A stretch of 23,350 bases of DNA from Planctomycetota bacterium (GTDB lineage: Bacteria; Planctomycetota; JAZDJP01), in assembly GCA_043803805.1 (NCBI GenBank), contig JAZDJP010000040.1:1-23350 (forward strand), given 5' to 3'. Of the stretch, positions 1 through 21,932 are shown in pieces. The stretch's first letter is position 1. The number at the start of each line of letters is the position of its first letter. The translations under genes were made by a program, and so were the position numbers. The notes under the pieces are model-generated. The model searched no databases. It saw only the letters and a list, made by a program, of their open reading frames with translations, and had not been told where the DNA came from.

Positions 1-67
1 GTTTGGCGGTGTCCAACGCTTGGCGTGCGAGCGCTAAGGTTGACTTGGTGAAGGGAAGTCGAGGCAT

Positions 68-104
68 GGACGATCTCCTATAGTTGTCTCTATAAAGATC
101 GTCC
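68..104. other. Inverted repeat/hairpin: GGACGATCT (68-76) pairs with AGATCGTCC (96-104), with a 19-nt loop
   Basis: Exact 9-bp reverse-complementary arms read directly from the sequence; no T-tract follows on either strand. Confidence 0.25.
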
Positions 105-181
105 AATTTGCCTGTTGTCGGGAGGGGTTTTCAACGGAGCAGGCATTCGGCATTTCATGATCCCTATTCCCCCATTCCCTC

Positions 182-253
182 CCCGACTCCCAGACTCCGA
201 GACTCTTGGACTCCAAGACTCGGAGACTCTCTGACTCGCCGACTCGCTGACTT
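182..253. repeat. Tandem array of 8-bp units NNNGACTC: 8 perfect GACTC cores at 185,193,201,209,217,225,233,241 plus one degenerate unit (GACTT at 249)
   Basis: Strict 8-bp phasing of the GACTC pentamer read directly from the sequence; related arrays at 4796-4838 and 7954-8095. Confidence 0.9.
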
Positions 254-268
254 CCCATTCCACATTCA

Positions 269-845
269 TCATTTCCCCACGCCCACTCCCTTCCGGTACG
301 CCTCCCGCGCCCCGGCGGCGTCCCCGAGGAGTTCCCGGATCCGGCCAATTAAAATAAAACCCTCCGCATCCTCTCCCGCCCGGGCCATTTCCTCCCGGAG
401 CCGGGCATCGAGCGCCGCGAGGATCTTCCGATCGTCGTCGGTCACCGCCGGATCGCCGCGCATCCCCCGGGTGGCAAGGAACACCTCCACGTCCCGGCAG
501 GCCCGGTGCACCCCTTCCAGTTGCTCCAGCCGCGCCGCGCGTTCGAGCGTCCGCCAGAGCCGGGGGACAAACATCCCCGCCATGATCCCCGACGTGAGGA
601 GCACCGCCAGGGTGAACGCCGCCACGTCGCGGTTCCGGGTGAGGCGCTTGCGCAGAATGTACCACACCGACGGCGGCCGGGCGTGGATGGGCTCCCGCCG
701 GCAATTCCGGGGACACCATACTCAATTCGGATTCCGCCGCCTCCGGCGTCCCGGACGGGGCGACCGGGTTTGCCCCCGCCGCCCCCTCGCGCAGGAACCG
801 CGCGAGGGCTTCGGATGTCGAATAATTGAGCCGCGTGTCGGACAT
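269..845 (-). CDS. Putative ECF anti-sigma factor-like membrane protein that appears split across two reading frames (N-terminal segment 722-845 in one frame, TM plus periplasmic part 269-721 in another), suggesting a frameshift or sequencing error
   Basis: Lies immediately downstream of the ECF sigma gene on the same strand. The ATG at 845 gives MSDTRLNYSTSEALARFLREG... with high GC3 for about 45 codons. The frame ending at 269 has very high GC3 and encodes a TM helix (VAAFTLAVLLTSGIMAGMFV) plus an 80-aa charged domain. A G4 run near 708-711 is a plausible slip site. Confidence 0.4.
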
Positions 846-935
846 GACATCACTCCCCGATTACGCCGATTCCCGAAACGATTACCCCGTCGGATTCCAT
901 TTTCCCCCGGCGCAATCGCCCTTCCGCCGGCGCCA

Positions 936-1682
936 TCACCCTCCCGAAAGCAACTCGTTCATCTCACGTTCCACGTCCTCATTGGAGTCTACGGACTCGC
1001 GCACCACCCGGCGAACCTCCCGCCGAAGTTCCCCCCGCACCTGGTGAAGGCCGTTGCGGACGTCGCTCTCGGAAATCCCCAGTTCCTTCGCCATCGCCGC
1101 GTAGGTCGCCGGCGAATCCCCCTCCGCGATCGCCCCGACAAACAACCGGAAAATCCCCCGATGCCGCCGCCGGCCCTCCCGCTCCAACGCCGCCGCGAGG
1201 CGCCCGCAGGCCGTCTCGAGAACCGTCCGGCGCCATTCCCGGTCGAAGGCCTCGTCGGGGGCCGGGGCATCCGGGTCCGCGACGAGGGGCTCGACCGCCT
1301 CCACGTCGAGCGCGGAGAATCCCCCGGCGGGCATTCGTTTTTGCGCCCGTCGGGCCCGCCAGACATCCGTCATGTAGTTCTTCAGCGCCGTACGCAGGTA
1401 GGCCCGGAAGGACCGGCACTCGGCGTCCACGGCGCGCGGGAACTCGTGCTCGAGGAGCCGGGCGAAAAAATCCTGGACGGCGTCCTTGGCGTCCTCCACG
1501 GACAGCCGCCACGTCCGGCGCAAATGAATGTACGCCGGCTTCCAGTAGGCCCCGATGAGCCGTTCGAGGGAGGCCCGGCGGGTGGCCGCCGTGCCGTCCC
1601 GGGCGCTCCGGATGGCGGTCCAGGGGGTGTCGGGGAATTCCCGCGCGTTCCCGCCGAGGGTGGTGTCCTTGGATATGGCCAT
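936..1682 (-). CDS. ECF-type (extracytoplasmic function) RNA polymerase sigma-70 family factor
   Basis: 248-aa ORF with region-2-like DAVQDFFARLLEH and a C-terminal region-4 HTH (ATYAAMAKELGISESDVRNGLHQVRGELRR); the N-terminal TPWTAIRSARDG motif is typical of PVC ECF sigmas. Confidence 0.85.
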   Translation of the reverse strand: MAISKDTTLGGNAREFPDTPWTAIRSARDGTAATRRASLERLIGAYWKPAYIHLRRTWRLSVEDAKDAVQDFFARLLEHEFPRAVDAECRSFRAYLRTALKNYMTDVWRARRAQKRMPAGGFSALDVEAVEPLVADPDAPAPDEAFDREWRRTVLETACGRLAAALEREGRRRHRGIFRLFVGAIAEGDSPATYAAMAKELGISESDVRNGLHQVRGELRREVRRVVRESVDSNEDVEREMNELLSGG

Positions 1683-1820
1683 TTTCCGTAAAGAAGGACG
1701 AGAAATCCCTCCCGCTGTTTATCTGGAAATCCCCCGCCGGAAGGATTATACTCCGATTCCGGGATTTTCGAAAATCTTTAAAACGGACGATTGGTTTTCC
1801 CGTCAGGACCGGTGGAGGCG

Positions 1821-2636
1821 ATGCGCATCATGCGGCTACTCGATACCATCCTCGAACGAAACCGGACCGGAGGAACGGCCCCCCTCCCGGCGGGCGCCGG
1901 CCCCCTGGTCATTCTCTCCTGCATTGACCCGCGCCTGAACGACACCCTTCCCCGCGCCCTGGGCCTGGACGGGGAGGCATTCGTGTGGCTCAGGAACGCC
2001 GGGAACATCGTCACGGGACCGATGTCGAGCACCCTCCGGTCGCTCGCCCTCGCCTGCGCCGTGAAGGGCGGGAAGGAGATCGCCGTCGTCGGCCACACCG
2101 AATGCCGGGTGGCCAAAACCAGCGTCATGGCCCTCATGGACCGGTTCGGGACGCTGGGCATTCCCCGGACGAAACTCCCGGACGACCTCGTGACGTTCTT
2201 CGGCCTGTTCACCAGCGAACGCCAGAACGTCATCACCGCGGCGAAGACCATCCGCCAGAGCCCCCTCATCGGGACGAAAATTCCGGTCCACGGGCTTCTG
2301 CTGGACATCACGAGCAATCGCATCGAGTGGCTCGTGAACGGCTACGACGCGGCGTCCGCGACGGCGGTGTCCGTCGCCGCGACGGCGCCACCCGGGCCGC
2401 CACCCCTTCCCCGCACCGATGCCGAGACTGCGCCGATTGAAATGAAACCCGAAGAGGTGTTCCGTGTCGTCATGAAAGAGAAATTCAAGAACTCGGAGCA
2501 AGGTCTTTCCCCGAAGGAATATCTCCATCGGGTTGAAAAAAGCGGTTACAACGCGGGGAAGATCCCGGACAAGGGCGCACGGAACCCGAAAGGCAATAAA
2601 ACGCCCAACGGGATCGGCGCCGCACCCGGTCAATAG
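1821..2636 (+). CDS. Beta-class carbonic anhydrase family protein with atypical motifs (CIDPR, HTECR) and a roughly 90-aa Pro/Lys-rich C-terminal extension
   Basis: Cys-x-Asp-x-Arg (SCIDPRL) and His-x-x-Cys (GHTECRV) zinc-ligand pattern of beta-CA; N-terminus LLDTILERNRTGG resembles the beta-CA N-terminus; GGAGG at 1814-1818. The start could be the ATG at 1821 or at 1830. Confidence 0.7.
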   Translation: MRIMRLLDTILERNRTGGTAPLPAGAGPLVILSCIDPRLNDTLPRALGLDGEAFVWLRNAGNIVTGPMSSTLRSLALACAVKGGKEIAVVGHTECRVAKTSVMALMDRFGTLGIPRTKLPDDLVTFFGLFTSERQNVITAAKTIRQSPLIGTKIPVHGLLLDITSNRIEWLVNGYDAASATAVSVAATAPPGPPPLPRTDAETAPIEMKPEEVFRVVMKEKFKNSEQGLSPKEYLHRVEKSGYNAGKIPDKGARNPKGNKTPNGIGAAPGQ

Positions 2637-2645
2637 GAGGACATC

Positions 2646-3215
2646 ATGGAATGGCTCTACCTGTTTTTACTGCTCATCGGCCTGTTTTATGCGTTGATCG
2701 TCGGCGTCACCGGCGGCGTTTTCGGCGGCGACCACGGCGTCGGGATGGATGTGGATCACGACATCAGCGGCCATGTGGACACCGCGGCCGGGGCCGACCA
2801 CGGAACGGTGCACTTCTCCCCGTTCAGCCCGGTCATCCTTTCCATGTTTGTCGGCAGTTTCGGCGCGGCGGGGCTGATCGCCCAGAGATTCGTTTCCCCG
2901 TCCCTTCCCGTCCATCTCGCCATCGCGACGGGATCGGGAATTTTCATCGCGGCGCTGACCATGATCGTCTTCGGCAAACTCTTCAGCGTCACCCAGTCCT
3001 CCAGCCACTCCCGCCCCGGGGACCTCGTCAACCTGGAGGCCGAGGTGCTCACTCCCATCCCGGAGAATGGCCTGGGGAAGATCGCCTACGCCATCCGCGG
3101 GACGCGCCTCACGGCCTCGGCGCGATCGGAAAGCGGGAAGGCCATCCCCGCCAACGCGAGCGTGAAGGTCAAAAAAATCGCCGGCGACATCTTTTTCGTG
3201 GAATTGGTTTCGTGA
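2646..3215 (+). CDS. NfeD-like membrane protein (stomatin/flotillin operon partner) with a C-terminal OB-fold domain
   Basis: Hydrophobic N-terminal TM segments followed by a C-terminal beta-rich segment (GKIAYAIRGTRLTASARSESGKAIPANASVKVKKIAGDIFFVE) typical of short NfeD/YuaF. SD AGGAGGA lies 4 nt upstream of the ATG, and the gene is directly followed by a flotillin gene. Confidence 0.75.
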   Translation: MEWLYLFLLLIGLFYALIVGVTGGVFGGDHGVGMDVDHDISGHVDTAAGADHGTVHFSPFSPVILSMFVGSFGAAGLIAQRFVSPSLPVHLAIATGSGIFIAALTMIVFGKLFSVTQSSSHSRPGDLVNLEAEVLTPIPENGLGKIAYAIRGTRLTASARSESGKAIPANASVKVKKIAGDIFFVELVS

Positions 3216-3241
3216 TGAAAATTTTATAAGGAGACATGTCC

Positions 3242-4720
3242 ATGGGTCCCATCCCTTTCCTGCCGCTGGCGGAAATTTCCGGCGGCCACGTGGTGCTGGC
3301 CGCCCTCGCGGTGGTCGTCATCTTCTTCATCCTCATGACGGTCCTCCTCAAACGCTACATCAAGGTGGGACCGAATGAGGCCCTCATCATCTCGGGCCGC
3401 AAGCACACCTACTCCGGCCACAAGGGGGAGGATATCGCCGTCGGCTTCCGGATCGTGAAGGGCGGCGGGACGTTCGTCTGGCCCTTCATCGAAAAGGTGG
3501 ACATCCTCTCGATGGAACTCCTCACCCTCGACGTCAAACTCGAGGACGTGTACACCATCACGGGAGTCCCGGTGTACGTGGACGGCGTGGCCCAGATCAA
3601 GGTCAAGGGGGACGAAATCTCCATCGCGACCGCGTCGGAACAATTCCTTGGCAAAGACCAGGGCGAGATCATGCAGATCGCCCTCCAGACGGTGGAGGGG
3701 CATCTCCGGGCCATCGTCGGGACGCTGACCGTCGAGGAAATTTACAAGAACAGGGAAATGTTCTCCCAGAAGGTCCAGGAGGTGGCCGCCGGGGACCTCG
3801 CCAACATGGGGCTCACGGTGGTGTCGTTCACGCTGCGCGAGATCAAGGACAAACAGGGGTACCTCGACGCCTTGGGCCGGCCGCGCATCGCCCAGGTGAA
3901 GCGCGACGCGACCATCGCGGAGGCCGAGGCCTCGCGGGACGCCACCATCAAGAGCGCGCAGGCCAACCAGGAGGCCCAGCAGGCCAAGTTCGGGGCCGAG
4001 ACCAGGATCGCCGAGGCCAACCAGAGTTACGAGGTGAAAAAGGCCGAATATCAGGTCAACATCAACTGCCGGAAGGCCGATTCTGACCTGGCCTATGATT
4101 TGGAACGGTACAAGGTCGCCCAGCAGGTCAAGGCGGAGGAGATCAAAGTCCAGGTGATCGAACGCGAGCAGATGATTGACATCCAGGAGAAGGAAATCTC
4201 CCGGAGGCAAAAAGAACTGGAAGCGACCATCCAGAAGCCCGCCGACGCCGAGCGGTACAAGATCGAGACGCTGGCCAACGCCCAGCGCTTCAAGTACCAA
4301 ACGGAAGCGGAAGGGCAGGCCCTGGCGACGAAGTCCATCGGGTTCGCCGAGGCCGACGCCTCCCGGGCCAAGGGCATCGCCGTCGCCGATGTCATCAAGG
4401 CCCAGGGGTTCTCGGAGGCCGAGGCGATGACGAAGAAGGCCGACGCCTGGAAGTGCTACAACGAGGCGGCGCTCGCGCAAATTATTGTGGAGAAACTCCC
4501 GGAGATCGTCCGGGCCGCCGCGGAACCCCTGGCGAAGACGGAAAAGATGATCGTCATCAACGCCGGGAGCGAAGGCGGCGGGGCGTCCAAGATCACCAAG
4601 GACGTCACCACCATCGTCAGCCAGGTGCCGCCGATCATCGAGGCGCTGACGGGCCTGAAACTCGAGGACCTCATCGCCAGACTGCCGGGGATGGGAAAGA
4701 AGGATGGGGAAAAGAAGTAG
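3242..4720 (+). CDS. Flotillin-like SPFH/band-7 domain protein (FloT/YuaG-like)
   Basis: N-terminal TM, an SPFH domain, then a long Ala/Glu/Gln-rich coiled-coil flotillin region (EAEASRDATIKSAQANQEAQQAKF...). SD AAGGAGA at 3228-3234. The ATG at 3242 is preferred over 3236 because of spacing. Confidence 0.85.
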   Translation: MGPIPFLPLAEISGGHVVLAALAVVVIFFILMTVLLKRYIKVGPNEALIISGRKHTYSGHKGEDIAVGFRIVKGGGTFVWPFIEKVDILSMELLTLDVKLEDVYTITGVPVYVDGVAQIKVKGDEISIATASEQFLGKDQGEIMQIALQTVEGHLRAIVGTLTVEEIYKNREMFSQKVQEVAAGDLANMGLTVVSFTLREIKDKQGYLDALGRPRIAQVKRDATIAEAEASRDATIKSAQANQEAQQAKFGAETRIAEANQSYEVKKAEYQVNINCRKADSDLAYDLERYKVAQQVKAEEIKVQVIEREQMIDIQEKEISRRQKELEATIQKPADAERYKIETLANAQRFKYQTEAEGQALATKSIGFAEADASRAKGIAVADVIKAQGFSEAEAMTKKADAWKCYNEAALAQIIVEKLPEIVRAAAEPLAKTEKMIVINAGSEGGGASKITKDVTTIVSQVPPIIEALTGLKLEDLIARLPGMGKKDGEKK

Positions 4721-4795
4721 TGCTGAGTACGAAGTTCTGAGTGCTGGGAACATCGTACAGGGGGGAGGGATAGTTGATAGTGAATAGTGGCCAGT

Positions 4796-4838
4796 AGGAA
4801 GTCGGCGAGTCCGCGAGTCGCCGAGTCGGAGAGTCGGC
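4796..4838. repeat. Tandem 8-bp NNNGAGTC array: GAGTC at 4807,4815,4823,4831 plus degenerate AAGTC at 4799, the opposite orientation to the 182-253 array
   Basis: Read directly from the sequence; followed by CTGAACT...TTTTCTGCGAG, a motif shared with the element at 8015-8049. Confidence 0.85.
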
Positions 4839-4941
4839 AACCTCTCCAACTCCTGAACTCACGAACTTTTCTGCGAGATGCGGACGACGAGGAACGAGCG
4901 ACGAATCGGGCCGGGACTGCCAACCGGCCCTTCTTCGTAAC

Positions 4942-5175
4942 GTGGGCCCCATGAACAAACACGATCCGATTGCCTTTGTCATCCACTTTTTCGGAGGGGC
5001 GATCCTCGGAGGAGGAATGGGGTTCATCCTCGCCTGGTTTGAAGTCTGGGCGAAATGGGTCCCCGGTTGGTTGCTCATCGTCGGAGGCGCGTCGTTTATC
5101 GGTTTCGCGGCAGGCCATGATCAGGAGGAATTTTGGAAGTCCCTGTGGTTGCCACGATGGTGGAGAGATTGGTAA
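4942..5175 (+). CDS. Hypothetical small membrane protein (77 aa, two predicted TM segments)
   Basis: ORF with two hydrophobic stretches (IAFVIHFFGGAILGGGMGFILAWF and WLLIVGGASFIGFAAG); no clear SD. Confidence 0.4.
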   Translation: MGPMNKHDPIAFVIHFFGGAILGGGMGFILAWFEVWAKWVPGWLLIVGGASFIGFAAGHDQEEFWKSLWLPRWWRDW

Positions 5176-5400
5176 TTGTCAGGATGATCTGAAGTGGGTT
5201 ATCGATCCCCCAATTCCGAATCATTCGACAATTGATCGGCGAATCCGTCGTGAGCCCCGACCTTCCGCTTTCCCGCCCGTGGTGCTACCTCACCCCAACG
5301 ATTGTCCTGGCGGCGTTGGTCGCACTGGTGCTGACGTGAGGATGATTCGATTACCGGGACCGATGACGAAAATCACCCGCGCGCGGACGGACGGGGGCGA

Positions 5401-5622
5401 TCATCCCGCCGGCCGGCGCCTCCGGAAACTGGCCGCGATCCACCCCCGGTTCAAAATCACATGAAGGACGATGCCGACGATCAACACCGTCCCGCCCCCC
5501 TCGTGCGCCGCCTCGAAAACATCCCGGGGCAGATTGTCCGCCAAATACCCCGACAGCGCCTGCGTCACGGTGAGCAGGGCCAGCGCCGGGTTCAGGATTT
5601 TCAGCATTGTGGCTGTGGTCAT
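5401..5622 (-). CDS. Hypothetical small membrane protein (73 aa)
   Basis: ATG (reverse complement at 5620-5622) preceded by a strong SD GGGAGGG with a 5-nt spacer; high GC3; one hydrophobic segment (GTVLIVGIVLHVIL). The upstream in-frame extension overlapping the palindrome was rejected. Confidence 0.5.
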   Translation of the reverse strand: MTTATMLKILNPALALLTVTQALSGYLADNLPRDVFEAAHEGGGTVLIVGIVLHVILNRGWIAASFRRRRPAG

Positions 5623-5640
5623 GATTTCCCTCCCAACAAT

Positions 5641-5669
5641 GCAGGGGCGGGTTTGAAACCCGCCCCTAC
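5641..5669. repeat. 29-nt near-perfect palindrome GCAGGGGCGGGTTTGAAACCCGCCCCTAC with a 14-bp GC-rich stem and one mismatch in the left arm; REP-like element or terminator
   Basis: Read directly from the sequence; overlaps the stop codon (5666-5668) of the ankyrin gene; belongs to the same family as 6874-6901 and 11702-11730. Confidence 0.8.
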
Positions 5670-6832
5670 TTCTCCAACATCCCGACAATCGCCGGATTCT
5701 TCATTTCCTTCGCCAGCTTCACCGCCGTCCTTCCCTGCATATCGCACAATTTTTTATCGGCTCCGTTTTTCAAAAGAAGTGCGACCATATCCCGGTTCCC
5801 CTCCCGCACGGCGATATGCAACGGCGTATCACCAGCGGAGTCCTTGAAACCAACCTCCTCTACTACTTCGTTGACACTCCGTTCGGCAATATCCAACCAC
5901 CCATGCCGAACCGCCTCGTGTAAAACCGTGGTTTTGCCGGATGGCGCCTTAATTTTCGGATGGTGGTTCAATAACACGTCCACGATGCGCCGATTCCCTT
6001 GAACGGACGCCATCAGGAGCGGCGTGAGTCCATTCCGGGAGGTCGCATTCACATCCACATTCTGTGATAACAGGTACTGGACGGAATCCAAATCCTCCAT
6101 GACAATCGCCACGTGCAAGGGGCGATATCCCTCCTCCCCCAAGGCCTCCGGGGATTTTTTCATGAAGTCCTTGCGATTCTCCATCCCAAGCGCCAGGGCG
6201 ACATGAACATCCGGACGCGCCCCGCGACTGACCAGAAATTCCAATATGGACTTGAGAGACTCCGCCTCCGTCAATCGTTCCTGTAACCATCGGGGAAGAT
6301 TCTCCCGTCCGACCTTCATCTCATCCATGATCTTCGGCATCACCCTGACAAAGCACGTCGAAGCTGCGTAATGAACTGCCGCGCTATTCGCCAGAGATAT
6401 GCCATGTCTGTCCATCTCATTAACATCCGCCCCGTGCCGGATCATCAACTCCACCATTTTGCGCGTGCCGGAAAGGACAGCACTGCGCATGGCCGAACCA
6501 AACGACTTGTCCCGCAAATCCGCCCCTTGGGAAATCAGCAACTCCGCGACTTCAGCATTGTCAGCGAGCATCGCCCAAAAAAGCAACGGGAACCCGTTTT
6601 CATCCCGTTCATTGATGAGGTCCGGATTATTTCGAATCAACTCCTTCAATCGAAGTATGTCATTCTTCTTCACAGCCTCCGCCATCTTCTGCACCGTCAC
6701 CATCCGGTCCATTTTCCGAATATCGTCCTGTTTTTTCCAATGTTGATACATCCAACAAACGGCGCATATCCCCATCAGCACCAGCAACAGGCACAACCGA
6801 AGCCGACGATAAAATTCAACGGTCGTAATCAT
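5666..6832 (-). CDS. Ankyrin-repeat protein with an N-terminal membrane anchor
   Basis: Multiple ANK repeats (e.g. GYRPLHVAIVMEDLDSVQYLLSQNVDVNATSRNGLTPLLMASVQGNRRIVDVLL and DSAGDTPLHIAVREGNRDMVALLLKNGADKK); N-terminal hydrophobic helix LRLCLLLVLMGICAVCWMY; GC content about 50%, against about 65% in neighbouring genes. Confidence 0.85.
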   Translation of the reverse strand: MITTVEFYRRLRLCLLLVLMGICAVCWMYQHWKKQDDIRKMDRMVTVQKMAEAVKKNDILRLKELIRNNPDLINERDENGFPLLFWAMLADNAEVAELLISQGADLRDKSFGSAMRSAVLSGTRKMVELMIRHGADVNEMDRHGISLANSAAVHYAASTCFVRVMPKIMDEMKVGRENLPRWLQERLTEAESLKSILEFLVSRGARPDVHVALALGMENRKDFMKKSPEALGEEGYRPLHVAIVMEDLDSVQYLLSQNVDVNATSRNGLTPLLMASVQGNRRIVDVLLNHHPKIKAPSGKTTVLHEAVRHGWLDIAERSVNEVVEEVGFKDSAGDTPLHIAVREGNRDMVALLLKNGADKKLCDMQGRTAVKLAKEMKNPAIVGMLEK

Positions 6833-6873
6833 GCTCTTCCCCAGGCGAATTCATTTCCTTCCGCAATCCACAT

Positions 6874-6901
6874 GTAGGGGCACGTTGCAACGTGCCCCTA
6901 C
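6874..6901. repeat. 28-nt perfect palindrome GTAGGGGCACGTTGCAACGTGCCCCTAC
   Basis: Exact self-reverse-complement read directly from the sequence. It lies between the ThyA-like stop (6922) and the ankyrin start (6832) and shares GTAGGGGC/GCCCCTAC termini with the other two palindromes. Confidence 0.8.
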
Positions 6902-6921
6902 GAATCCGGATGATTTCCGAA

Positions 6922-7905
6922 TCACGCCGTCAACCGCCCCGTTTCAATCTCCCGGATGAGATTTTCAAGAAGGGCGATTTTGTCGGGGGGGAAGCGCCAC
7001 TGGCGGCGGTTCTCGTCGGAGAGAAGCCCCTTGAGTTGCGGAATCACAAGCATCTCGGCGGCATCCTCGCTCCGGAGCGCCCGCGCCACGTAGGATTCCT
7101 CGTCGCACGTCTCGAAGAAACTCTTGATGCCTTTTGCGGGATCGCCCCCCACCCGGGCGAAGTCCTGACCGTAGATGTGAAGGCTGAAAACGTGGTCGGA
7201 GTAGCTCCCCACCTTCACCGGCCGATTCGCTTTCGCGGCGATGTCCTTCGCGATCATCTGCTGGAGAAACGTGATTCCAATTAAATTATCCGGCCAGGCC
7301 TTGTAGAGGTCGCGGCTGCGCCAGTGGGTGCTTAAATTCAGCACGAGATTCCCGTCGGCGTCCTCCGGACAGCGGAATTGCATCTCCCGCAGGCACGGGA
7401 CGTCCTCCTTCAGGAACGGATCGAGCCAGGGCGCCGGGGTGGAGGCGACCGCCCGGCGGGTGTGCGGGGTCTTCGCGACGCGCTCGATGGCGAGCGCCAC
7501 CTGGTCCACCGTCCCGCCATCCGGCCCCGGGTGGGCGAAAAGCCTCTGGTGGTACGTGTAGGGCCACTCCGTCGCGGCGAGTTCCCCGTGGATGGAGGCC
7601 TTGAGTTTTTCCACCGGCACCACGAGATGGTCCTTCACTCCGAGAAACTCGGCGATGTAGGTCCCGATTTCGCAGAAGGACACCGCCGGGTAGCGCGGCT
7701 GGGCGAAGGGATCCAGAATTTCCACGAGGACGCGGGCGTCGCGGCTGGGCGGGTCCATGAACGACCCGTCCGGATTCTTCCGGTCGTACTCCGTCCGCAT
7801 GGCCAATCCGTTCTCCCACACCGCCTTCATGGCGCGGTAGTGGGCGCGGGGAATGGACTCGGCGACGACGTGAAGAGTGGGCAGGCGGCCGGGGTTCGTG
7901 GACAT
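6922..7905 (-). CDS. Divergent thymidylate synthase (ThyA) family protein; a thymidylate synthase or pyrimidine-nucleotide C5 hydroxymethylase-like enzyme
   Basis: Aligns by eye to ThyA core motifs: YTYHQRLF (~YGxQWR), DQVALAIERVAKTPHTRRAVASTPAPW (~DQ...DPxSRRxIxSAWN), PCLREMQFRC (~PCHxxFQFYV, catalytic Cys), LSTHWRSRDLYKAWPDNLIGITFL (~LSCQLYQRSxDxxLGxPFNIASYALL), DHVFSLHIY (~GDxHxY). SD GGGAGGA lies 6 nt upstream of the ATG at 7905. The longer ORF extension to 8058 is a translation of the GAGTC repeat and was discarded. Confidence 0.75.
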   Translation of the reverse strand: MSTNPGRLPTLHVVAESIPRAHYRAMKAVWENGLAMRTEYDRKNPDGSFMDPPSRDARVLVEILDPFAQPRYPAVSFCEIGTYIAEFLGVKDHLVVPVEKLKASIHGELAATEWPYTYHQRLFAHPGPDGGTVDQVALAIERVAKTPHTRRAVASTPAPWLDPFLKEDVPCLREMQFRCPEDADGNLVLNLSTHWRSRDLYKAWPDNLIGITFLQQMIAKDIAAKANRPVKVGSYSDHVFSLHIYGQDFARVGGDPAKGIKSFFETCDEESYVARALRSEDAAEMLVIPQLKGLLSDENRRQWRFPPDKIALLENLIREIETGRLTA

Positions 7906-7953
7906 GCGGATTCCTCCCGTAATAAATCGAGGATGTTCGTGATGCCGCCCCAT

Positions 7954-8095
7954 GAGTCTGGAGAGTCCGCGAGTCGGCGAGTCAGGGAGTCTACCCCCCT
8001 CCCCCCTGAACTTTCCACCTCTCTGACTCCGTCGGTTTTTCTGCGAGTCACAGGCCACAGGTCCGGGACTCGGTGACTCGAAGACTCACCGACTA
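7954..8095. repeat. Inverted pair of 8-bp-unit arrays: GAGTC x5 (7954,7963,7971,7979,7987) and GACTC x3 plus a degenerate unit (8067,8075,8083,8091), separated by about 75 bp that contains a CCCCCCTCCCCCCTGAACT...TTTTCTGCGAGTC motif
   Basis: Read directly from the sequence. It sits between the stop of the methyltransferase-PDZ gene (8100) and the ThyA-like start (7905), so it occupies the ThyA-like promoter region. Confidence 0.85.
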
Positions 8096-8099
8096 CTTC

Positions 8100-9131
8100 T
8101 TACCAAAGCGTCACCTCGATTTTCACCTTCCGTTTTCCGCGCACCATCACGAGGCGCAGTTTCTTCTCCTCGCCGACGGATTTTCGCAAGCGATGGATGT
8201 CGAGTTCCCCGACGGGACAATCGCTCACCGCGGCCAGGCGGTCCTTCGCCTTGACGCCGGCCTTCTCGGCGGGCGTGCCCGGAAGCACCTCCCCCACCGG
8301 CCAGGCGTCGCCCGTGCGCGTGATGTTCAGTCCGATCCCCAAAAGGGCCACCCCCAGACGCATGACATCGCAGGCCGCGTTCACCTCCACCCAGATGCCC
8401 TTCCCGGCCGGGACGGCCGTGATGACGGCCAGAGCCCCCGGCTCGCCGCGGTCCGAGTGATACGCGTATTCAAACGAGGCGATCCGGAAATCCGCCGTGT
8501 GGAGCGCACCCAGCCACTCCCGCGTCGCGGTCGAATCCTTCAGGGACGCGGCCGAAACGAGGATGCCGTCCTCCGCGAGCGCGCCCCGGACCCGCCGGAA
8601 CGCCTCCGCCCGCTCCCGGACGCATTCCACCGCGCGGGTGTCCACCGCCGCGTCGAAGGGCCCCCTGGGAAGCGCCTTCGTGAAATCCCCCGTCACGAAC
8701 TCGATATTTTTAATCTTGAGCGCCCCGGCCATCCGCCGCGCCTCGGCGACGGCGTTCCGGGCGAAATCCATCCCCGTGACGCGGGCCTTCTTGTTTCGCG
8801 CGGCGTACCACGTCGCGAGGTATCCGGTGGAACTCCCGAGGTCGAGGATGCGTTTCCTCTCACCGATCGCCTCCGCCGCCGCTTCCCCGGCCGCGCGGAC
8901 GGCGTCCGTGTGCATGGAGAGCACCACGGGCGCTATTTTCGGGTCGGCGGTGAAATTGGAAAACCCCTGCCAGTCCGCGAGATTGGATCCCTCGCGCTCG
9001 AGAGGCTGGAGAAGGGTCTGCACCTCGCGGGCGACCCGGGGGCCGAGTTCCTTCGCGGCCCAGTAGAAATAATCCACCGAGGTGAACCGCCGGAGGCCGA
9101 AGCGGACGAGATGCTTCTCCAGGGACGTCAT
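8100..9131 (-). CDS. Class I SAM-dependent methyltransferase fused to a C-terminal PDZ domain
   Basis: Methyltransferase motifs I (ILDLGSSTGYLATWYA), II (VTGMDFARNA) and III (IEFVTGDF) are present. The C-terminal 90 aa match the PDZ pattern (GIGLNITRTGDAWPVGEVLPGTPAEKAGVKAKDRLAAV...LRLVMVRGKRKVKIEV). Confidence 0.8.
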   Translation of the reverse strand: MTSLEKHLVRFGLRRFTSVDYFYWAAKELGPRVAREVQTLLQPLEREGSNLADWQGFSNFTADPKIAPVVLSMHTDAVRAAGEAAAEAIGERKRILDLGSSTGYLATWYAARNKKARVTGMDFARNAVAEARRMAGALKIKNIEFVTGDFTKALPRGPFDAAVDTRAVECVRERAEAFRRVRGALAEDGILVSAASLKDSTATREWLGALHTADFRIASFEYAYHSDRGEPGALAVITAVPAGKGIWVEVNAACDVMRLGVALLGIGLNITRTGDAWPVGEVLPGTPAEKAGVKAKDRLAAVSDCPVGELDIHRLRKSVGEEKKLRLVMVRGKRKVKIEVTLW

Positions 9132-9325
9132 GGCCGTTCATGGTAAGCGGCGGCCCCCGCCGGCGCAATCCGAATTCCGCCGGATCCCCGCGCCGCCGGG
9201 TTCCACCTCTACCGCGTGAGGCAGGCCGCCAAGCACAAAATCACCGCGACCGGTTTCTTTTTATATATCCATCGGCGCGGGCCTGGAAACCCTTGAGCCC
9301 GGCGGCAGGGGAACGGGGGGCCGAC

Positions 9326-12300
9326 CTAGTCCGTGCGCTCGACCTTCGCGGTGGCCGTCCTTACCAGCGCCGCCTTGCCGGAACCGTCCCAGAACCGCAG
9401 CGCGGCAACCACCTCGGCGCCCACCTTCAGGTACGGGCCATCGCGCGTGACGAGCTCGACAACGAGTTTTTTACCGGCATGGACGGTGATGGTATCCCGG
9501 GCCTTGGGGTCCTCTCCCGGAAAGAACTTGCCATTGTTTCCCACGGTCGCGACGTGCATGTTCCAGGAGAGATTGACGTCCTTCTTGCCGGCGGAGTTGT
9601 CCAACTCCACGGCCACCTTGGCGTGGAGCGGCGAGCCGCCGTCGGGGCCGGGATTGTCCACGACGGGCATCCAGTCGCGCCAGAAGTAGACGTCCCCGGT
9701 CTTAATCTTGCAGTCGCCAACGGCCTCCCCGCGCTGGAGCACCACCTCGGCCCTGCCCGGCTCGACGATCTCGATTTCCACGGGGCCGGTGGTGACCTTG
9801 CCGTTCCAGAATGCGGTCCCCGCTTGCGGAACGTCGCAAGCCGCGGTCATGACGTACTTGCCGGGCGGCAGGGACTTCGACAAGATGTTTTTCCCCTCCT
9901 CGCCGACGTTCCAGAACTCACACATCAACAACGCCTGCGCTTTTTCACCGGCCTGTAAATTCACATCGGGGCGGAGAGGCATCGGCTTCGGCGGCGGGTG
10001 AATGCTCGCCGTGTACGTTTTCTTGCTTTCTTGCGCGACAAGACGCACTTTCCAACTCCATGTGTCAAGCACCCAACCCGGCAGTTTTATGGGCTGATTT
10101 CCCGCGTTCATGAGACAAGCATCCATCACAACCGGCTTCCCGGCCTCGAACTTCGCCTGCTTGGCCGACAGCCCCGCTTGGAGGCCGTTCACCGCCGAGC
10201 CCCAGGAAATGTTTTCAGCCTCCTTTCCACCCTTTTCTATCCGAATCGTCCAGACGTTTGAACTGACTTTTCCGCGAATCTGACGGATTCTATATTCGCC
10301 GGGTTTTTCGAATGAAAAAAAAGTTGAAAGAGGGATAACAAGAGTTTGTTCCTGCCCCGACGCCAGGGAGTAGCGAGTGTTGACGATATGGTTGGCGATA
10401 CGGCCCTTCACGGCTTTCCCATCAGGACCGATGACTTCCAACAACGCCGCGTTAAATGCTCCGAGGTAGAGATTTTCCTGAACATCTTCTTGGTCCATTT
10501 GCTCGAAATGGCCGACGTCCTGTATGGCTTCCTTGCCGCCGTTTCTTACGCCAAGTGTGACTTTGATGACCTCGTTCGGTGCGTATTCCGTCTTTTCCGA
10601 CCAGACGCCGCATTGAAGCCCCGCGTTCAGCCCGACCGACGCCTGGCCCCAGGAGATGTTGTCCTTCGGCACCGTCGATTTCGCGCCGCTTTTATCCCTG
10701 ACCTCGATCCTGATTGAACCGGTCTCCACCGCACCCGTCCATGCGGGAACGAGGTTCTGGGGCACGACCCTGACGTGTTTTCGCGTGTCGCCTCCCCATT
10801 GATATTTCGCTTTGACAAGGTACTCTCCTGCCGGCAAGGCATCGACATCAATCTTGGCGCCCGCAGGGGAGTTCCCGATTTTCCAGAATCCGCCGACCTC
10901 GCCAAAAACGATGGTCTCGATTTTCCGATCCTTCTTTTCGAATTCGCCAAGAGAAATATCTTCCCCTCCCGCCGACTTCGTCCAGTAGTAGATTTCTTTC
11001 CTTTCCCCGGATTCAAACGAGAGCGCGAACCGGTCCGGATGGTCCCAAGCATCCAGCCGGAGCGCTTTTCCCCCCGTATTTTCAAAATGAATAGCGAAAT
11101 TCATGGATTCGCCGGCCCTGAATACGTTTTGTCCTGCGGTTGCGATCCCCGCCTGCAGGCCGTTGACGGGCTGGCCCCAAGAAATGTTTTCAGCCTCCTT
11201 TCCACCCTTGGTCTGAATTTCAACCGCTGGTGAGCCGGCCTCGCCTATCCAGACTCCTTCCTTGCGGAGTTTTTCCAAGTACGCAACCGCCTCCGCCTTA
11301 TTGGCCTCGGTGTTCTCAACAAGGGAGTCCAGCGTCAGGGCGTACCGGAATCGCACCGCGCGGGCCCTTGCCTCCGGCGCGGCGCCGAAGAATTCCTTGA
11401 GAGAGCCCGACGAAAGCGCCGCGGTTTCCCCCGGCGCGATGATTTTGCGCTTGCCGTCGTAGATGCCGGCGTCGAGCACCGCGAGTTCTCCAGTTTTGTA
11501 GCTGAGCCCCTGACGTACGACCGCCCCCTTCTCGTCCACGAGTTCCCAGCCGGAGGAACCCCGATAGGTGCAGAGCGTCACGGGTTTGTCACCCTCGTTT
11601 CTGACAAATGCCCCGGCGCGCAATCCGTCTCGGTCTTTCGTCAACCGGACGCCAACAGACAGGCCGTTGACCGGCTGGCCCCAGGAAATGCCGTCGTTTA
11701 CGGGTGAATCCGTAGGGGCGGGTTTCAAACCCGCCCCTACATTGTCGGTTTTTTTCGTGACGTCCTCGCCCGCCCTGCACCCCGCCACCACCACCGCCAT
11801 TGCGAGAAACACCATTCCTGTGAATCCCAGCATCCAGGTATTCATCCGCGTCACAAGACGCCTCCTTTCGTCAAGAATTCCTTTCACACGCTCCTCAAGA
11901 TTCCACCGGGGATGCACGAGGCCCACCGCCGCCGGTGTGCGGTGGAAGATGCTCGTCTTCTCCGCGAGATCCAAGAGCATTTTGGCGTAACCCGGCGCGT
12001 TCCCCCGCCGCAATACATAATTGTCGCACACCTCCTCGCGGGCGCGGGCGAGTTCGCCGTTTGCCTTCCAGACAAACGGATGCCACCAGAACACGACTTC
12101 CGCGATGCGCTGAAGAAGTCCCACCAGATGATCCCGCTGAAGAACGTGGGCGCATTCGTGGACGAGAATATCGCGAAGTTCCACCGGACCGAGAAGTCCC
12201 GCCACCGGCGTCGGAAGCAAAATCATCGGCCGCGTGATGCCGAAACAGATCGGCCCCGTGATCTGCCCCGACATGCCGATCGGAGGAAGCGCGCGGACGC

Positions 12301-12880
12301 CGAGCGCATTTTTCACATCCGCCAGGACGGGCCCCATCTCGTCGTCATCCAGCGGGATGGCGCTTGTCCGGAGCGCCGTCTGGACTCCAAAACCATGAAT
12401 CAGACGAACCAGCATGACAAGAACTCCCCCCGCCCAGACGAGAAAAACGCCGCACACCGCGGCCCGAATCCGGTCCGCTCGGGAAAGCGGCGGCGACGCG
12501 GGTTTCACGGGCGTCGCCGGCGCGGTCTCCGCGCGGACGACCGGCGCCGGATGCGGGGAGACCGGGATGACGGGTTCCGAAACGGTTTGGATCGACGTCG
12601 CCGGTGCGGCCGCCGCCGGTGGGGAAACAGGTTTCTCCCTCAAGAAAGGAAGAGTAAACGTCGTGATCCCCGCCGCCTCCGCCACCACCGACACCAGCGG
12701 CGCGAGAAGCACCACCGCCAGGGCCGACAGCCACAATCCGTAACGGACGGCCGCCCCCGCCCGGCGGAAAATCCGGGAAAGCATCCAGGCCAGAGCCACC
12801 ACCACCGTGACCTGGATCAACGCATTCATCGCGGCGAGCGCCGCGGCGTCACCAAGATAAAATCGGAGAAGCGTCCTCAT
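9326..12880 (-). CDS. blaR1: BlaR1/MecR1-family M56 peptidase signal transducer (anti-repressor) with a very large C-terminal extracytoplasmic sensor built from about four tandem repeats, each of about 190 aa, carrying an ISWGQPVNGL motif
   Basis: N-terminal TM helices and the zinc-metalloprotease motif VHECAHVLQRDH characteristic of BlaR1; a further TM at about aa 350; the repeats contain DGISWGQPVNGL, ENISWGQPVNGLQAG, DNISWGQASVGLNAG and ENISWGSAVNGLQAG. The gene overlaps the upstream blaI-family gene by 4 nt (ATGA). Confidence 0.85.
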   Translation of the reverse strand: MRTLLRFYLGDAAALAAMNALIQVTVVVALAWMLSRIFRRAGAAVRYGLWLSALAVVLLAPLVSVVAEAAGITTFTLPFLREKPVSPPAAAAPATSIQTVSEPVIPVSPHPAPVVRAETAPATPVKPASPPLSRADRIRAAVCGVFLVWAGGVLVMLVRLIHGFGVQTALRTSAIPLDDDEMGPVLADVKNALGVRALPPIGMSGQITGPICFGITRPMILLPTPVAGLLGPVELRDILVHECAHVLQRDHLVGLLQRIAEVVFWWHPFVWKANGELARAREEVCDNYVLRRGNAPGYAKMLLDLAEKTSIFHRTPAAVGLVHPRWNLEERVKGILDERRRLVTRMNTWMLGFTGMVFLAMAVVVAGCRAGEDVTKKTDNVGAGLKPAPTDSPVNDGISWGQPVNGLSVGVRLTKDRDGLRAGAFVRNEGDKPVTLCTYRGSSGWELVDEKGAVVRQGLSYKTGELAVLDAGIYDGKRKIIAPGETAALSSGSLKEFFGAAPEARARAVRFRYALTLDSLVENTEANKAEAVAYLEKLRKEGVWIGEAGSPAVEIQTKGGKEAENISWGQPVNGLQAGIATAGQNVFRAGESMNFAIHFENTGGKALRLDAWDHPDRFALSFESGERKEIYYWTKSAGGEDISLGEFEKKDRKIETIVFGEVGGFWKIGNSPAGAKIDVDALPAGEYLVKAKYQWGGDTRKHVRVVPQNLVPAWTGAVETGSIRIEVRDKSGAKSTVPKDNISWGQASVGLNAGLQCGVWSEKTEYAPNEVIKVTLGVRNGGKEAIQDVGHFEQMDQEDVQENLYLGAFNAALLEVIGPDGKAVKGRIANHIVNTRYSLASGQEQTLVIPLSTFFSFEKPGEYRIRQIRGKVSSNVWTIRIEKGGKEAENISWGSAVNGLQAGLSAKQAKFEAGKPVVMDACLMNAGNQPIKLPGWVLDTWSWKVRLVAQESKKTYTASIHPPPKPMPLRPDVNLQAGEKAQALLMCEFWNVGEEGKNILSKSLPPGKYVMTAACDVPQAGTAFWNGKVTTGPVEIEIVEPGRAEVVLQRGEAVGDCKIKTGDVYFWRDWMPVVDNPGPDGGSPLHAKVAVELDNSAGKKDVNLSWNMHVATVGNNGKFFPGEDPKARDTITVHAGKKLVVELVTRDGPYLKVGAEVVAALRFWDGSGKAALVRTATAKVERTD
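10183..10234. repeat. Intragenic DNA repeat, copy 1 (52 nt; the last 34 nt are nearly identical to 11175-11208)
   Basis: GGCCGTTCACCGCCGAGCCCCAGGAAATGTTTTCAGCCTCCTTTCCACCCTT matches 11157-11208 with about 6 mismatches, and the 3-prime 34 nt differ at a single position. It encodes the KGGKEAENISWGQ segment of a sensor repeat. Confidence 0.7.
11157..11208. repeat. Intragenic DNA repeat, copy 2 (paired with 10183-10234)
   Basis: See copy 1. Weaker, more diverged copies occur near 10621-10660 and 11671-11700. Confidence 0.7.
11702..11730. repeat. 29-nt perfect palindrome GTAGGGGCGGGTTTCAAACCCGCCCCTAC located in frame inside the blaR1-like ORF, where it encodes the GAGLKPAPT linker segment
   Basis: Exact self-reverse-complement with a 14-bp stem; same family as 5641-5669 (opposite loop orientation) and 6874-6901. 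Confidence 0.8.
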
Positions 12881-13275
12881 GCGCGTTTCCTCCCCTTCTC
12901 GGCCGTGTCAATGAGTTTCCGGATGCGCGTGGTCTCCTCGGAGGTGAGATTCTCCCCGTCCACGAGGGCCGCCACGAGCCCCGACGCGGATCCCGCGAAG
13001 ACGGTCCGCACGAGACGCGACACGATCCCCCCCAAGGCCTGTTTGCGTTCGGTGGCCGCGGAATACACAAAACTGTTCCGCACCGCCCGACGAACCAGCC
13101 ACCCCCGTTCTTCGAGGCGCGTCATGTGAGTGAGGACGGTGTTCCGGGCCACCGGCCGCCGGGCGCGCAGAACATCCCAGACGTCCGCGACCGACGCCTC
13201 CCGGCGTTCCCAGATCACGTTCATGATCTCGAGTTGTCCGGGAGAAAGGGTTTCCGTGGAAGACATTCGGCCCAT
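12877..13275 (-). CDS. blaI: BlaI/MecI/CopY-family (penicillinase repressor) winged-helix transcriptional repressor
   Basis: N-terminus LSPGQLEIMNVIWERREASVADVWDVLRARRPVARNTVLTHMTRLEERGWL has the typical BlaI DNA-binding domain, followed by a C-terminal dimerisation region. SD GGAGG lies 6 nt upstream of ATG 13273-13275, and the stop overlaps the blaR1 start. Confidence 0.85.
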   Translation of the reverse strand: MGRMSSTETLSPGQLEIMNVIWERREASVADVWDVLRARRPVARNTVLTHMTRLEERGWLVRRAVRNSFVYSAATERKQALGGIVSRLVRTVFAGSASGLVAALVDGENLTSEETTRIRKLIDTAEKGRKRA

Positions 13276-13293
13276 GCGAGACCTCCTTCTCAA

Positions 13294-13345
13294 CGATTGT
13301 TGTAGGCATAATACCTACCCGAGTAGGCATTGACAAGAAAAAAAA
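13294..13345 (-). promoter_or_regulatory. Candidate blaI-blaR1 promoter with an overlapping operator
   Basis: The minus-strand read gives -35 TTGTCA, a 17-nt spacer and -10 TATTAT. The spacer contains the dyad GCCTAC-TCGG-GTAGG, and a further GCCTAC follows the -10 hexamer. Confidence 0.5.
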
Positions 13346-13360
13346 CGAAATTATTTTTCG

Positions 13361-13390
13361 GACGGGTGAAAAAAACCGCCCGTCGCCGAG
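13361..13390 (-). terminator. Weak hairpin GACGGG...CCCGTC with a T-rich tract following on the minus strand; possible terminator of the small ORF 13448-13663
   Basis: 6-bp GC stem with a 12-nt loop on the minus strand, followed at some distance by a T8 run; not a canonical intrinsic terminator. Confidence 0.2.
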
Positions 13391-13447
13391 GATCCCGATG
13401 AAATCGTGATGACCGGCCGAAACGCCTGCGCCATCGCCGGACCTCCG

Positions 13448-13663
13448 TCAGATCCCCGGGGCGGTCGGGGTGGTCGGCGCGACCGGGACGGCCGGGACGA
13501 CCGACGGCAGGGACAGGGGCGGAGACGGGGGCAGCGGCAGGGGGGAAATCGCCGGGGGCGGCGTTTCGACCGTTCCCATTTTCCGCCTTAACTTTTCCTC
13601 ATGCTTTCGTTTCTTGGCGATGTCCCGCTGTCGCTTCGCAAACGCATAATTGGGCTTGGCCAT
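13448..13663 (-). CDS. Hypothetical small basic protein (MAKPNYAFAKRQRDIAKKRKHEEKLRRK...) with a Pro-rich C-terminal tail
   Basis: AGGATGG SD-like sequence 6 nt upstream of the ATG. The N-terminal 30 aa look like a real basic peptide. The C-terminal half lies in a GC-rich low-complexity tract, so the call is uncertain. Confidence 0.3.
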   Translation of the reverse strand: MAKPNYAFAKRQRDIAKKRKHEEKLRRKMGTVETPPPAISPLPLPPSPPLSLPSVVPAVPVAPTTPTAPGI

Positions 13664-13995
13664 GTTCCATCCTCATGAAGGGAAGGGTTGATCGCGGAAC
13701 CGGAGCAGGTCCCCCTTCGCCATCCCGGCACCGGGACCGGAACCCGCCCACCGCCGACAACATCAGTATACGGGACGGGAAGCGCTGGAACAAAGCGAAA
13801 TCCGATCCGCGCCAACGCGGGCGCCCGTCCGCGTTCGTCCCTTTTCCTCCTCCAACACCTTCACGCATCTCCCCAGCCGCCGACAATTCCCGCATCGGGT
13901 TCCCGTTTTCGCCCCTCATTTATCGTGTCAAATCCCGGCCCACTTCGTTAAAATCCCCGGCTGGATGCATTTACACTTAACGGAGGATGGCCTCA

Positions 13996-20637: not shown

Positions 20638-20651
20638 GGAAAGGAGAAGTT

Positions 20652-21923: not shown

Positions 21924-21932
21924 GGAGGAGCC

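Follow-up and report, generated by a model that had tools for sequence, protein, structure and literature searches.

Arrays of GAGTC boxes in 8-bp register, with free spacers, between the genes of a Planctomycetota contig

The window described here is an entire contig, 23,350 bp long and with a G+C content of 0.61, from a metagenome-assembled genome (MAG) of a Planctomycetota bacterium; array counts given for the source organism are counts within this window. Its intergenic DNA carries four arrays of a short box, GAGTC on one strand and GACTC on the other, which recurs every 8 bp and is followed by a 3-nt spacer of nearly free sequence. The boxes and their 8-bp register are maintained by selection or by some box-specific process, and at least two of the arrays have been duplicated together with an adjoining tail. 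The best reading, which is put forward tentatively on the strength of this anatomy, is that the arrays are coated by a protein and form the arms of a duplicated composite element.

On the plus strand, GACTC is found at positions 185, 193, 201, 209, 217, 225, 233 and 241, in steps of 8 bp throughout, and is followed by GACTT at 249. The phased array with a degenerate ninth unit that the original prediction had placed at 182-253 is thus present as described. The further arrays that it had reported at two other loci, in both orientations, are also found and are called A2, A3 and A4 below. The four arrays, in three intergenic regions of a 23-kb contig, are probably members of a repeat family, as had been proposed. 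The arrays, with the strand on which they read GAGTC, and their surroundings are as follows.

161-184, no strand assigned: tccctattcccccattccctcccc, a C-rich tract directly beside A1, which on the GAGTC strand is rich in G and comes right past the array; Tandem Repeats Finder (TRF) gives it a row at 168-191.
185-253, minus strand: array A1, found by a phased search; nine units, AAGTC and eight GAGTC, with a 3-nt spacer that differs after each.
Gene context of A1: starts 15 nt past the stop codon (269-271) of the TPR-like gene 269-667 (minus strand) and ends 117 nt ahead of the ATG (67-65) of the next minus-strand gene.
4760-4769, plus strand: G-tract GGGGGGAGGG, 30 nt ahead of A2.
4799-4835, plus strand: array A2, five units, AAGTC and four GAGTC.
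Gene context of A2: starts 78 nt past the flotillin stop codon (4718-4720) and ends 106 nt ahead of an open reading frame (ORF) for a membrane protein of 77 amino acids (4942-5175).
4836-4877, plus strand: tail of A2, homologous to the A3 tail; holds CCTGAACTC (4852-4860) and an exact TTTTCTGCGAG (4867-4877).
7954-7991, plus strand: array A3, five GAGTC units, with one step of 9 bp.
Gene context of A3: 48 nt upstream of the ATG (7905-7903, minus strand, preceded by GGAGGA) of a thymidylate-synthase-like gene, to which A3 is antisense.
7992-8066, no strand assigned: central segment between A3 and A4, with a C-tract (7994-8006), CCTGAACTT (8005-8013), a lone GACTC (8025), an exact TTTTCTGCGAG (8037-8047) and a lone GAGTC (8045).
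8067-8095, minus strand: array A4, four units, TAGTC and three GAGTC, which on the plus strand are three GACTC followed by GACTA.
Gene context of A4: starts 4 nt past the stop codon (8100-8102) of the methyltransferase-PDZ gene 8100-9131 (minus strand).

Homopurine or homopyrimidine tracts of G or C (GGGGGGAGGG at 4760-4769, CCCCCCTCCCCCC at 7994-8006 and the C-rich 24-mer at 161-184) adjoin three of the four arrays.

Arrays of this kind are not expected by chance. In 200 trials with windows randomised by a first-order Markov model there were 0.27 chains of at least three phased units, with one mismatch allowed, and never more than two, compared with four arrays of four to nine units in the real window. 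The total number of GACTC and GAGTC pentamers is not raised (39, where 46 are expected), and the non-random part is therefore their clustering and phase. In a frame plot, the third-position G+C periodicity stops where the flanking genes end and is missing from all four arrays, in agreement with the intergenic position that had been claimed for them. Long ORFs that read through the arrays are spurious and do yield the recurring TRRLADSP peptide pointed out earlier. Nor are these arrays of the CRISPR type, as was also recognised: the unit is 8 bp including a 3-nt spacer, whereas CRISPR repeats measure about 23-50 bp and alternate with unique spacers of similar length.

The unit consists of a fixed box and a free spacer. 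AGTC is present in all 23 units and the preceding G in 20; the three units lacking it open A1, A2 and A4. Over the same 23 units, the information at the three spacer positions amounts to 0.05, 0.44 and 0.21 bits, while 18 of 19 steps are exactly 8 bp long. No two neighbouring units of A1 have the same spacer. Such near-random spacers beside about 110 intact core positions exclude the neutral decay of a perfect repeat, because the core would then have eroded too. TRF describes A1 as a repeat of period 8 with 9.8 copies between 179 and 257 and 73% matches. The arrays thus have the head-to-tail arrangement, with a period of 1-11 bp, of a simple sequence repeat, but not its near-identical units, only five of the eight positions being conserved. 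The combination of free spacers and kept boxes sets them apart from an ordinary decaying microsatellite.

The boxes are part of a larger structure. A2 and its tail are homologous to A3 and its tail over about 95 nt, and the tails, each about 45 nt long, share the exact 11-mer TTTTCTGCGAG (at 4867 and 8037) and CCTGAACT. A2 and A3, at least, thus derive from the copying of a larger module, about 95 nt long. A3 and A4 form a convergent inverted pair, 75 bp apart. All three array-bearing intergenic regions are flanked by genes on the same strand. None of the other array loci has the tail motif TTTTCTGCGAG. A consensus scan of positions 1-9400 for promoters and terminators gave nothing above the shuffled expectation, and the reading of CCTGAACTT followed by CGTC as a promoter of the extracytoplasmic function (ECF) type was discarded, the spacing being wrong in the second copy.

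Phased GACTC is widespread. A scan of species-representative genomes (one per bacterial or archaeal species, with four phased GACTC as the query) gave at least 117 loci, and a metagenome scan in the style GAGTC-SGC gave at least 120. The loci used for comparison include L001-L117 and L193-L312, 1.49 Mb in all, among the matches listed. Genes around these arrays were called with a rough finder based on third-position G+C, so that gene boundaries, and start codons especially, are approximate. The phyla represented in the genome scan include Chloroflexota, Acidobacteriota (among them Thermoanaerobaculia), Gemmatimonadota, Armatimonadota, Verrucomicrobiota, Planctomycetota, Actinomycetota, cyanobacteria, Bacteroidota and others. 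Several MAGs contain at least three or four array loci each, indicating genome-specific families. In other lineages most arrays have uniform or two-state spacers that are characteristic of the lineage, such as TGA/TGC, GAA/GAC or GCC/GCT. The GAGTC arrays are one family within a general abundance of intergenic repeats of 7-8 bp. A literature search on GAGTC and octamer repeats found nothing relevant.

Two of the loci show other arrangements. In the Planctomycetota MAG SMAG_U14276 (L009), a GACTC octamer array with variable spacers (1895-1977) lies 12 nt ahead of the ATG of a gene, and directly past the stop codon of that gene the heptamer GTCCAAG is repeated about 12 times (718-746), so that different families of short repeats coexist in one genome. 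In the Acidobacteriota MAG MFD03899.bin.2.39 (L115), the GACTC array at 4628-4700 alternates steps of 8 and 7 bp (GACTCcgaGACTCtg repeated) and has a 15-bp super-unit; a tRNA gene is situated about 110 bp upstream of the convergent partner array.

The arrays are plastic in length and long-lived in place. Among contigs that are 98-99% identical, L211 and L217 differ by exactly one 8-bp unit and L210 and L308 by several units. Where the flanks are 78-86% identical (L283/L298 and L212/L301), the array is found at the same site with identical cores, and only the spacers have changed. The array-bearing intergenic region of L212/L301 is better conserved than its coding flanks.

The arrays are also polar. 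Nine inverted pairs less than 400 bp apart, the window's A3/A4 being one of them, are convergent, with a GAGTC array followed by a GACTC array, and none is divergent. With near-duplicate loci removed, 48 of 206 GAGTC arrays have a core of opposite orientation within 100 nt on the 3' side and 13 of 206 on the 5' side (p = 1.4e-6). Among 72 arrays that are GAGTC-sense to the incoming gene, 41 start between -5 and 30 nt of its stop codon, which they often overlap; of 60 arrays in the opposite sense, 14 start there (p = 1e-4). These two regularities, pairing that is convergent only and polarity towards stop codons, would be explained by a polar composite element, which has an array outside and a tail of about 50-80 nt inside and whose full form is an array, a centre and an inverted array. 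The central segments are mostly unrelated between copies, and the lengths of the elements vary.

With respect to transcription no such preference is seen. In spacers between co-directional genes, 41 arrays have one orientation and 39 the other; when these spacers are counted singly, 43 are sense-only and 31 antisense-only (p = 0.2). This difference is insufficient for a polar terminator, and that model was dropped. The lack of a strand preference is as expected of a site that acts at the level of the duplex. A further 25 arrays lie between divergent genes, and 16 of 206 appear to be gene-internal according to the rough gene finder.

There is no sign of RNA structure at the arrays of the window. 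The fold of 7900-8105 (minus strand), which contains A4 and A3, is not better than that of shuffled sequences (z = -0.43). No Rfam family matches the window arrays at the gathering score or at E<=1, nor the arrays of 12 other loci. The arrays are direct repeats, which separates them from the repetitive extragenic palindromic (REP) elements, the bacterial interspersed mosaic elements (BIME) and the curated structured RNAs.

Several features together argue for a reader of duplex DNA: the box never varies, the spacers are free, the register is fixed, the direction of transcription makes no difference and RNA structure is lacking. In the mechanism proposed, (G)AGTC boxes in 8-bp register, separated by unconstrained spacers, would be read on double-stranded DNA by a sequence-specific protein. 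One copy of this protein, probably a dimer, would bind to each box, and the array would be coated cooperatively. The arrays would form the outer arms of a small, composite element between genes, its tail of about 50-80 nt lying inside, and the full form of the element would have two convergent arrays around a core, as at 7954-8095. The element would be copied within the genome, and array length would change by the gain or loss of whole 8-bp units. The reader may be a host regulator, a nucleoid protein or the recombinase of the element itself, and the outcome of binding may be that of an operator or an insulator, the organisation of the nucleoid, or mobilisation. The convergent-only geometry, the polarity of the outer ends, the lack of association with particular genes and the patchy distribution fit a selfish element well; conservation at orthologous sites fits a host reader. 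Iterated binding sites, one of the functions that the original prediction had suggested, give the best fit to the invariant AGTC, the free spacers, the fixed register and the experimental precedents; the search for a binding protein, described next, produced none, and the protein therefore stays putative.

Several observations weigh against a protein-coated element. No candidate binding protein was recognised: a Pfam scan of the 29 ORFs of the window, small ones included, found no ribbon-helix-helix protein, and the only small DNA-binding proteins there are a BlaI-type repressor and an ECF-like sigma factor. The ribbon-helix-helix family is likewise not among the commonest families in 150 array-flanking genes elsewhere, although the cognate gene could be situated at another place in the genome. 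The Pfam census of these 150 array-facing genes lists 230 families, none of them in more than four genes, and thus shows no regulon. Twenty-five arrays, roughly one in five, lie between convergent genes. Conservation of the core alone is seen in the window contig and a few other loci, whereas most other lineages have uniform spacers. GACTC is no commoner than control cores of the same composition: among viral contigs, stretches of five phased units number 22 for GACTC, 50 for GTCAC, 20 for GCTAC and 16 for CATCG, and a universal reader of GACTC was rejected on these counts. Arrays lacking the core are plentiful in the 1.49 Mb of listed loci, with 86 of period 7 and 32 of period 8, and so many unrelated arrays in the same genomes indicate that such repeats are generated independently of sequence. 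Finally, when relatives were searched for the same arrays, as the original prediction had proposed, the contigs with flotillins 68-79% identical to that of the window, which differ in G+C content or in neighbouring genes, were found to have none. The methyltransferase-PDZ gene has no relative at E<1e-30.

Some of these observations are accommodated directly if the arrays are neutral simple sequence repeats with long units, functionless and tolerated between genes, in which slippage favours units of 7-8 nt in non-coding DNA. Periods 6, 9, 10, 11 and 12 are represented by 18, 11, 1, 1 and 13 core-less arrays in the listed loci and are thus much rarer than the 7- and 8-bp arrays, which have many different sequences. 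The unit-wise differences between close relatives (L211/L217 and L210/L308), the lack of a common function among neighbouring genes, the absence of a strand bias and the failure of GACTC to exceed the control cores all point the same way. Heptamers are known to be over-represented in intergenic DNA, for which polymerase slippage has been suggested (PMC4692102). However, slippage copies whole units, yet neighbouring units of A1 share no spacer while AGTC is intact in 23 of 23 units, and decay would have affected core and spacer alike. The occurrence of one core in four arrays within 8 kb, the convergent-only inverted pairs and the conservation of the L212/L301 spacer region above its coding flanks are also left without explanation. 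Neutrality is therefore a possible but doubtful account of the arrays in the window. Genesis of GAGTC repeats by a nickase together with a polymerase, as in some in-vitro work on GAGTC nickases, was considered and set aside; no usable literature source was found, and the variable spacers argue against it.

The arrays might instead act as RNA. Repeats of the form (GAGUCNNN)n in 3' or 5' untranslated regions would then be bound by an oligomeric RNA-binding protein and affect the termination, stability or translation of neighbouring genes. Each of the three regions of the window has an array that is GAGUC in the sense of its flanking genes, starting 4, 15 or 78 nt past the stop codon upstream, and the excess of stop-proximal starts among sense arrays in other lineages (41/72 against 14/60) agrees with this. 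The sites of TRAP likewise consist of a conserved core, free spacers and a fixed period. A post-transcriptional regulator has also been proposed for the TAACTGA heptamers (PMC4679880). Nevertheless, the two orientations relative to transcription are about equally frequent, A3 is antisense, and neither a structural signal nor an Rfam match was obtained. The stop-codon polarity is explained equally well by an element with an outer array and an inner tail. A function at the RNA level is thus unlikely.

The composite element could belong to an as yet undescribed prokaryotic class of foldback type, in which convergent arms of 8-bp-phased boxes, serving as sites for a recombinase or a DNA-coating protein, enclose a variable centre. 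Such elements would be present in several copies in at least Planctomycetota, Acidobacteriota (including Thermoanaerobaculia), Chloroflexota, Gemmatimonadota and Armatimonadota, typically right behind stop codons. The original prediction had mentioned an element resembling a miniature inverted-repeat transposable element (MITE). This suggestion is borne out in so far as A2 and A3 share a 45-nt tail and arrays elsewhere are the outer arms of convergent composites; it is not borne out by any terminal inverted repeat beyond the boxes, target duplication or empty site. The flanks of L215 and L307, which were compared in the search for an empty site, diverge completely. A foldback class of this breadth is distinctly unlikely.

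Convergent arrays could also be the arms of a stem-loop in RNA, or of a cruciform in DNA, behind genes, in the manner of REP elements or terminators, with single arrays as decayed halves. Arms that are complementary over 20-40 nt around a loop of 20-60 nt are indeed found directly past stop codons at L040, L058, L083, L100 and L243 (Thermoanaerobaculia, Acidobacteriota and Chloroflexota). However, complementary arms able to form a long hairpin arise automatically wherever a lineage uses a single 8-mer. The A3 and A4 arms have no complementarity outside their 5-nt cores and do not fold better than shuffled sequences, yet their cores are perfectly kept. A divergent order would fold equally well but occurs in none of the nine pairs, and three of the four window arrays have no partner arm or no good one. 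A hairpin function is improbable.

The original prediction had further raised a methylation switch, in which the arrays would be GANTC clusters for an adenine methyltransferase of the CcrM/HinfI type or sites of a GAGTC-specific system. This is scarcely credible: every unit does contain GANTC, and GACTC/GAGTC is scarce outside the arrays of the contig (19 against 32 expected under a maximal-order Markov model, z = -3.5, the sixth lowest of 512 pentamers), but the middle base is G or C in all 23 units and never A or T, GAATC/GATTC occurs at expectation (69 against 68.6), the depletion does not recur in the other lineages that carry arrays (observed/expected 0.87-1.02), the window encodes no DNA methyltransferase, DNA-methylase features are lacking in the adjacent methyltransferase, and the 8-bp register is left unexplained. 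Restriction-type avoidance of GACTC was discarded too, the depletion outside the arrays being confined to the window contig, where it may be sampling noise or a peculiarity of the organism.

In many environmental bacteria the DNA between genes is filled with families of tandem repeats of 7-8 bp, which became known first from cyanobacteria and whose function has never been agreed. The window contig is an unusually clean case, in which everything has drifted save a box of 4-5 bp and the 8-bp register, so that the maintained part can be separated from copies made by slippage. Any explanation must now account for two newly described regularities seen across phyla, namely that inverted arrays pair only convergently and that the array lies at the outer end. 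Should the putative protein-coated arrays prove to have a protein reader or a mobilising enzyme, a common and unannotated fraction of intergenic DNA would be explained, and gene callers would stop translating such arrays.

The window has several other features. The order beta-carbonic anhydrase, NfeD-like membrane protein and flotillin (1791-4720) is kept in the distant relatives L118 and L120 (68% flotillin identity), in which the DNA downstream of flotillin is unlike that of the window and arrays are absent. A 37-nt palindromic element, CCAACAATGCAGGGGCGGGTTTGAAACCCGCCCCTAC, is present in two copies (5633-5669 and 11712-11748) that are inverted with respect to each other and 95% matching. 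One copy overlaps the stop codon of an ankyrin gene and is terminator-like. The other is in frame within a BlaR1-like ORF (9326-12880, minus strand), where it is translated to include VGAGLKPAPTDS in a linker past the M56 peptidase domain, and resembles the known in-frame palindromic insertions of Rickettsia. In the BlaR1-like protein, the M56 peptidase domain occupies residues 16-333, and four internal repeats of about 150 amino acids are marked by NISWGQPVNGLQAG. The gene is preceded by that of the BlaI-type repressor (12877-13293). The following 690 bp or so (13294-13986) hold no confident gene and include G-rich repeats of periods 9 and 12 (13457-13543) and an A/T-rich stretch with a terminator-like hairpin (13330-13385). 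The longest ORF at 20577-23141 (minus strand), of 854 amino acids, has no Pfam match and is probably spurious; third-position G+C and Pfam favour two plus-strand genes in its place, one at 20652-21923 (a GFO/IDH/MocA oxidoreductase) and one from 21933 onward.

Among known systems, the foldback elements and MITEs with subterminal repeats (the eukaryotic foldback elements, Ac/Ds and En/Spm) have inverted arms of short tandem repeats. The arrays resemble them in that repeats at the outer ends converge on a variable centre and in that many non-coding copies are present irrespective of gene function. They differ in that the analysis found neither a target-site duplication nor an empty site, a transposase or a conserved terminus, and in that several arrays persist at orthologous sites in diverged genomes. 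The TRAP sites of Bacillus trp leader RNAs contain a GAG/UAG core about 9-11 times, with non-conserved spacers and a period of 5-6 nt, strictly in the sense orientation and in one regulon. The window arrays do not belong to this group, as they have a period of 8, one of the four is antisense, and the arrays of other lineages lack a strand bias.

The geometry of the arrays, which have contiguous boxes, a period of 7-8 bp and at least four boxes each, is that of the arrays bound by ribbon-helix-helix proteins, but the 29 ORFs of the window do not include the small cognate protein that such arrays usually have nearby. The repressor MetJ binds tandem 8-bp met boxes, with one ribbon-helix-helix dimer per box. 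Omega, the ParB protein of pSM19035, binds 7-10 contiguous heptads of 7 bp; it binds tightly whether the repeats are direct or converging, and full function requires four of them or more (PMC9499535). The convergent-only pairing of the GAGTC arrays recalls this preference of omega. However, the sites of omega and MetJ overlap the promoters of defined regulons or plasmid genes and their boxes are fully specified, whereas the convergent arrays described here are 40-130 bp apart rather than adjacent, have no regulon and combine an 8-bp period with free spacers.

The ribbon-helix-helix protein ParG of plasmid TP228 recognises ACTC boxes separated by 4-bp spacers, eight in the operator OF and 12 in the centromere parH, in direct and inverted orientation and with one dimer per box (PMC3130281). 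The likeness to the window arrays lies in a short non-palindromic box containing ACTC, a period of 8 bp (a 4-bp box and a 4-bp spacer), spacers that are not read directly and DNA that is coated (PMC3130281). In TP228, however, the sites form a single plasmid locus with AT-rich spacers, beside the genes of the proteins that use them. The window has no ParG- or ParF-like gene. Its arrays occupy several chromosomal loci by unrelated genes, their spacers are G+C-rich and near-random, and the invariant part is AGTC/GACT plus a fifth base, not ACTC.

The heptamers over-represented in intergenic DNA (PMC4692102) include GGGAATC of Xanthomonas, GGGGAYT of Nostoc, TAACTGA of Beggiatoaceae, cyanobacteria and Bacteroidetes, and the tandem heptanucleotides (STRR) of Calothrix (PMC4692102, PMC4679880). 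As in the arrays described here, taken across the lineages compared, a motif is repeated head to tail at many intergenic loci of one genome, often near the end of an ORF, with a patchy phylogeny, no pattern in the function of neighbouring genes and a varying copy number (PMC4679880, PMC4692102). In those families, however, whole 7-nt units are repeated, whereas here the period is 8, five of eight positions are kept, and convergent pairs with a tail are formed. The feature is real and statistically secure, and its phased boxes with free spacers, arranged in convergent composites, are a variant of known, unexplained bacterial intergenic repeats.

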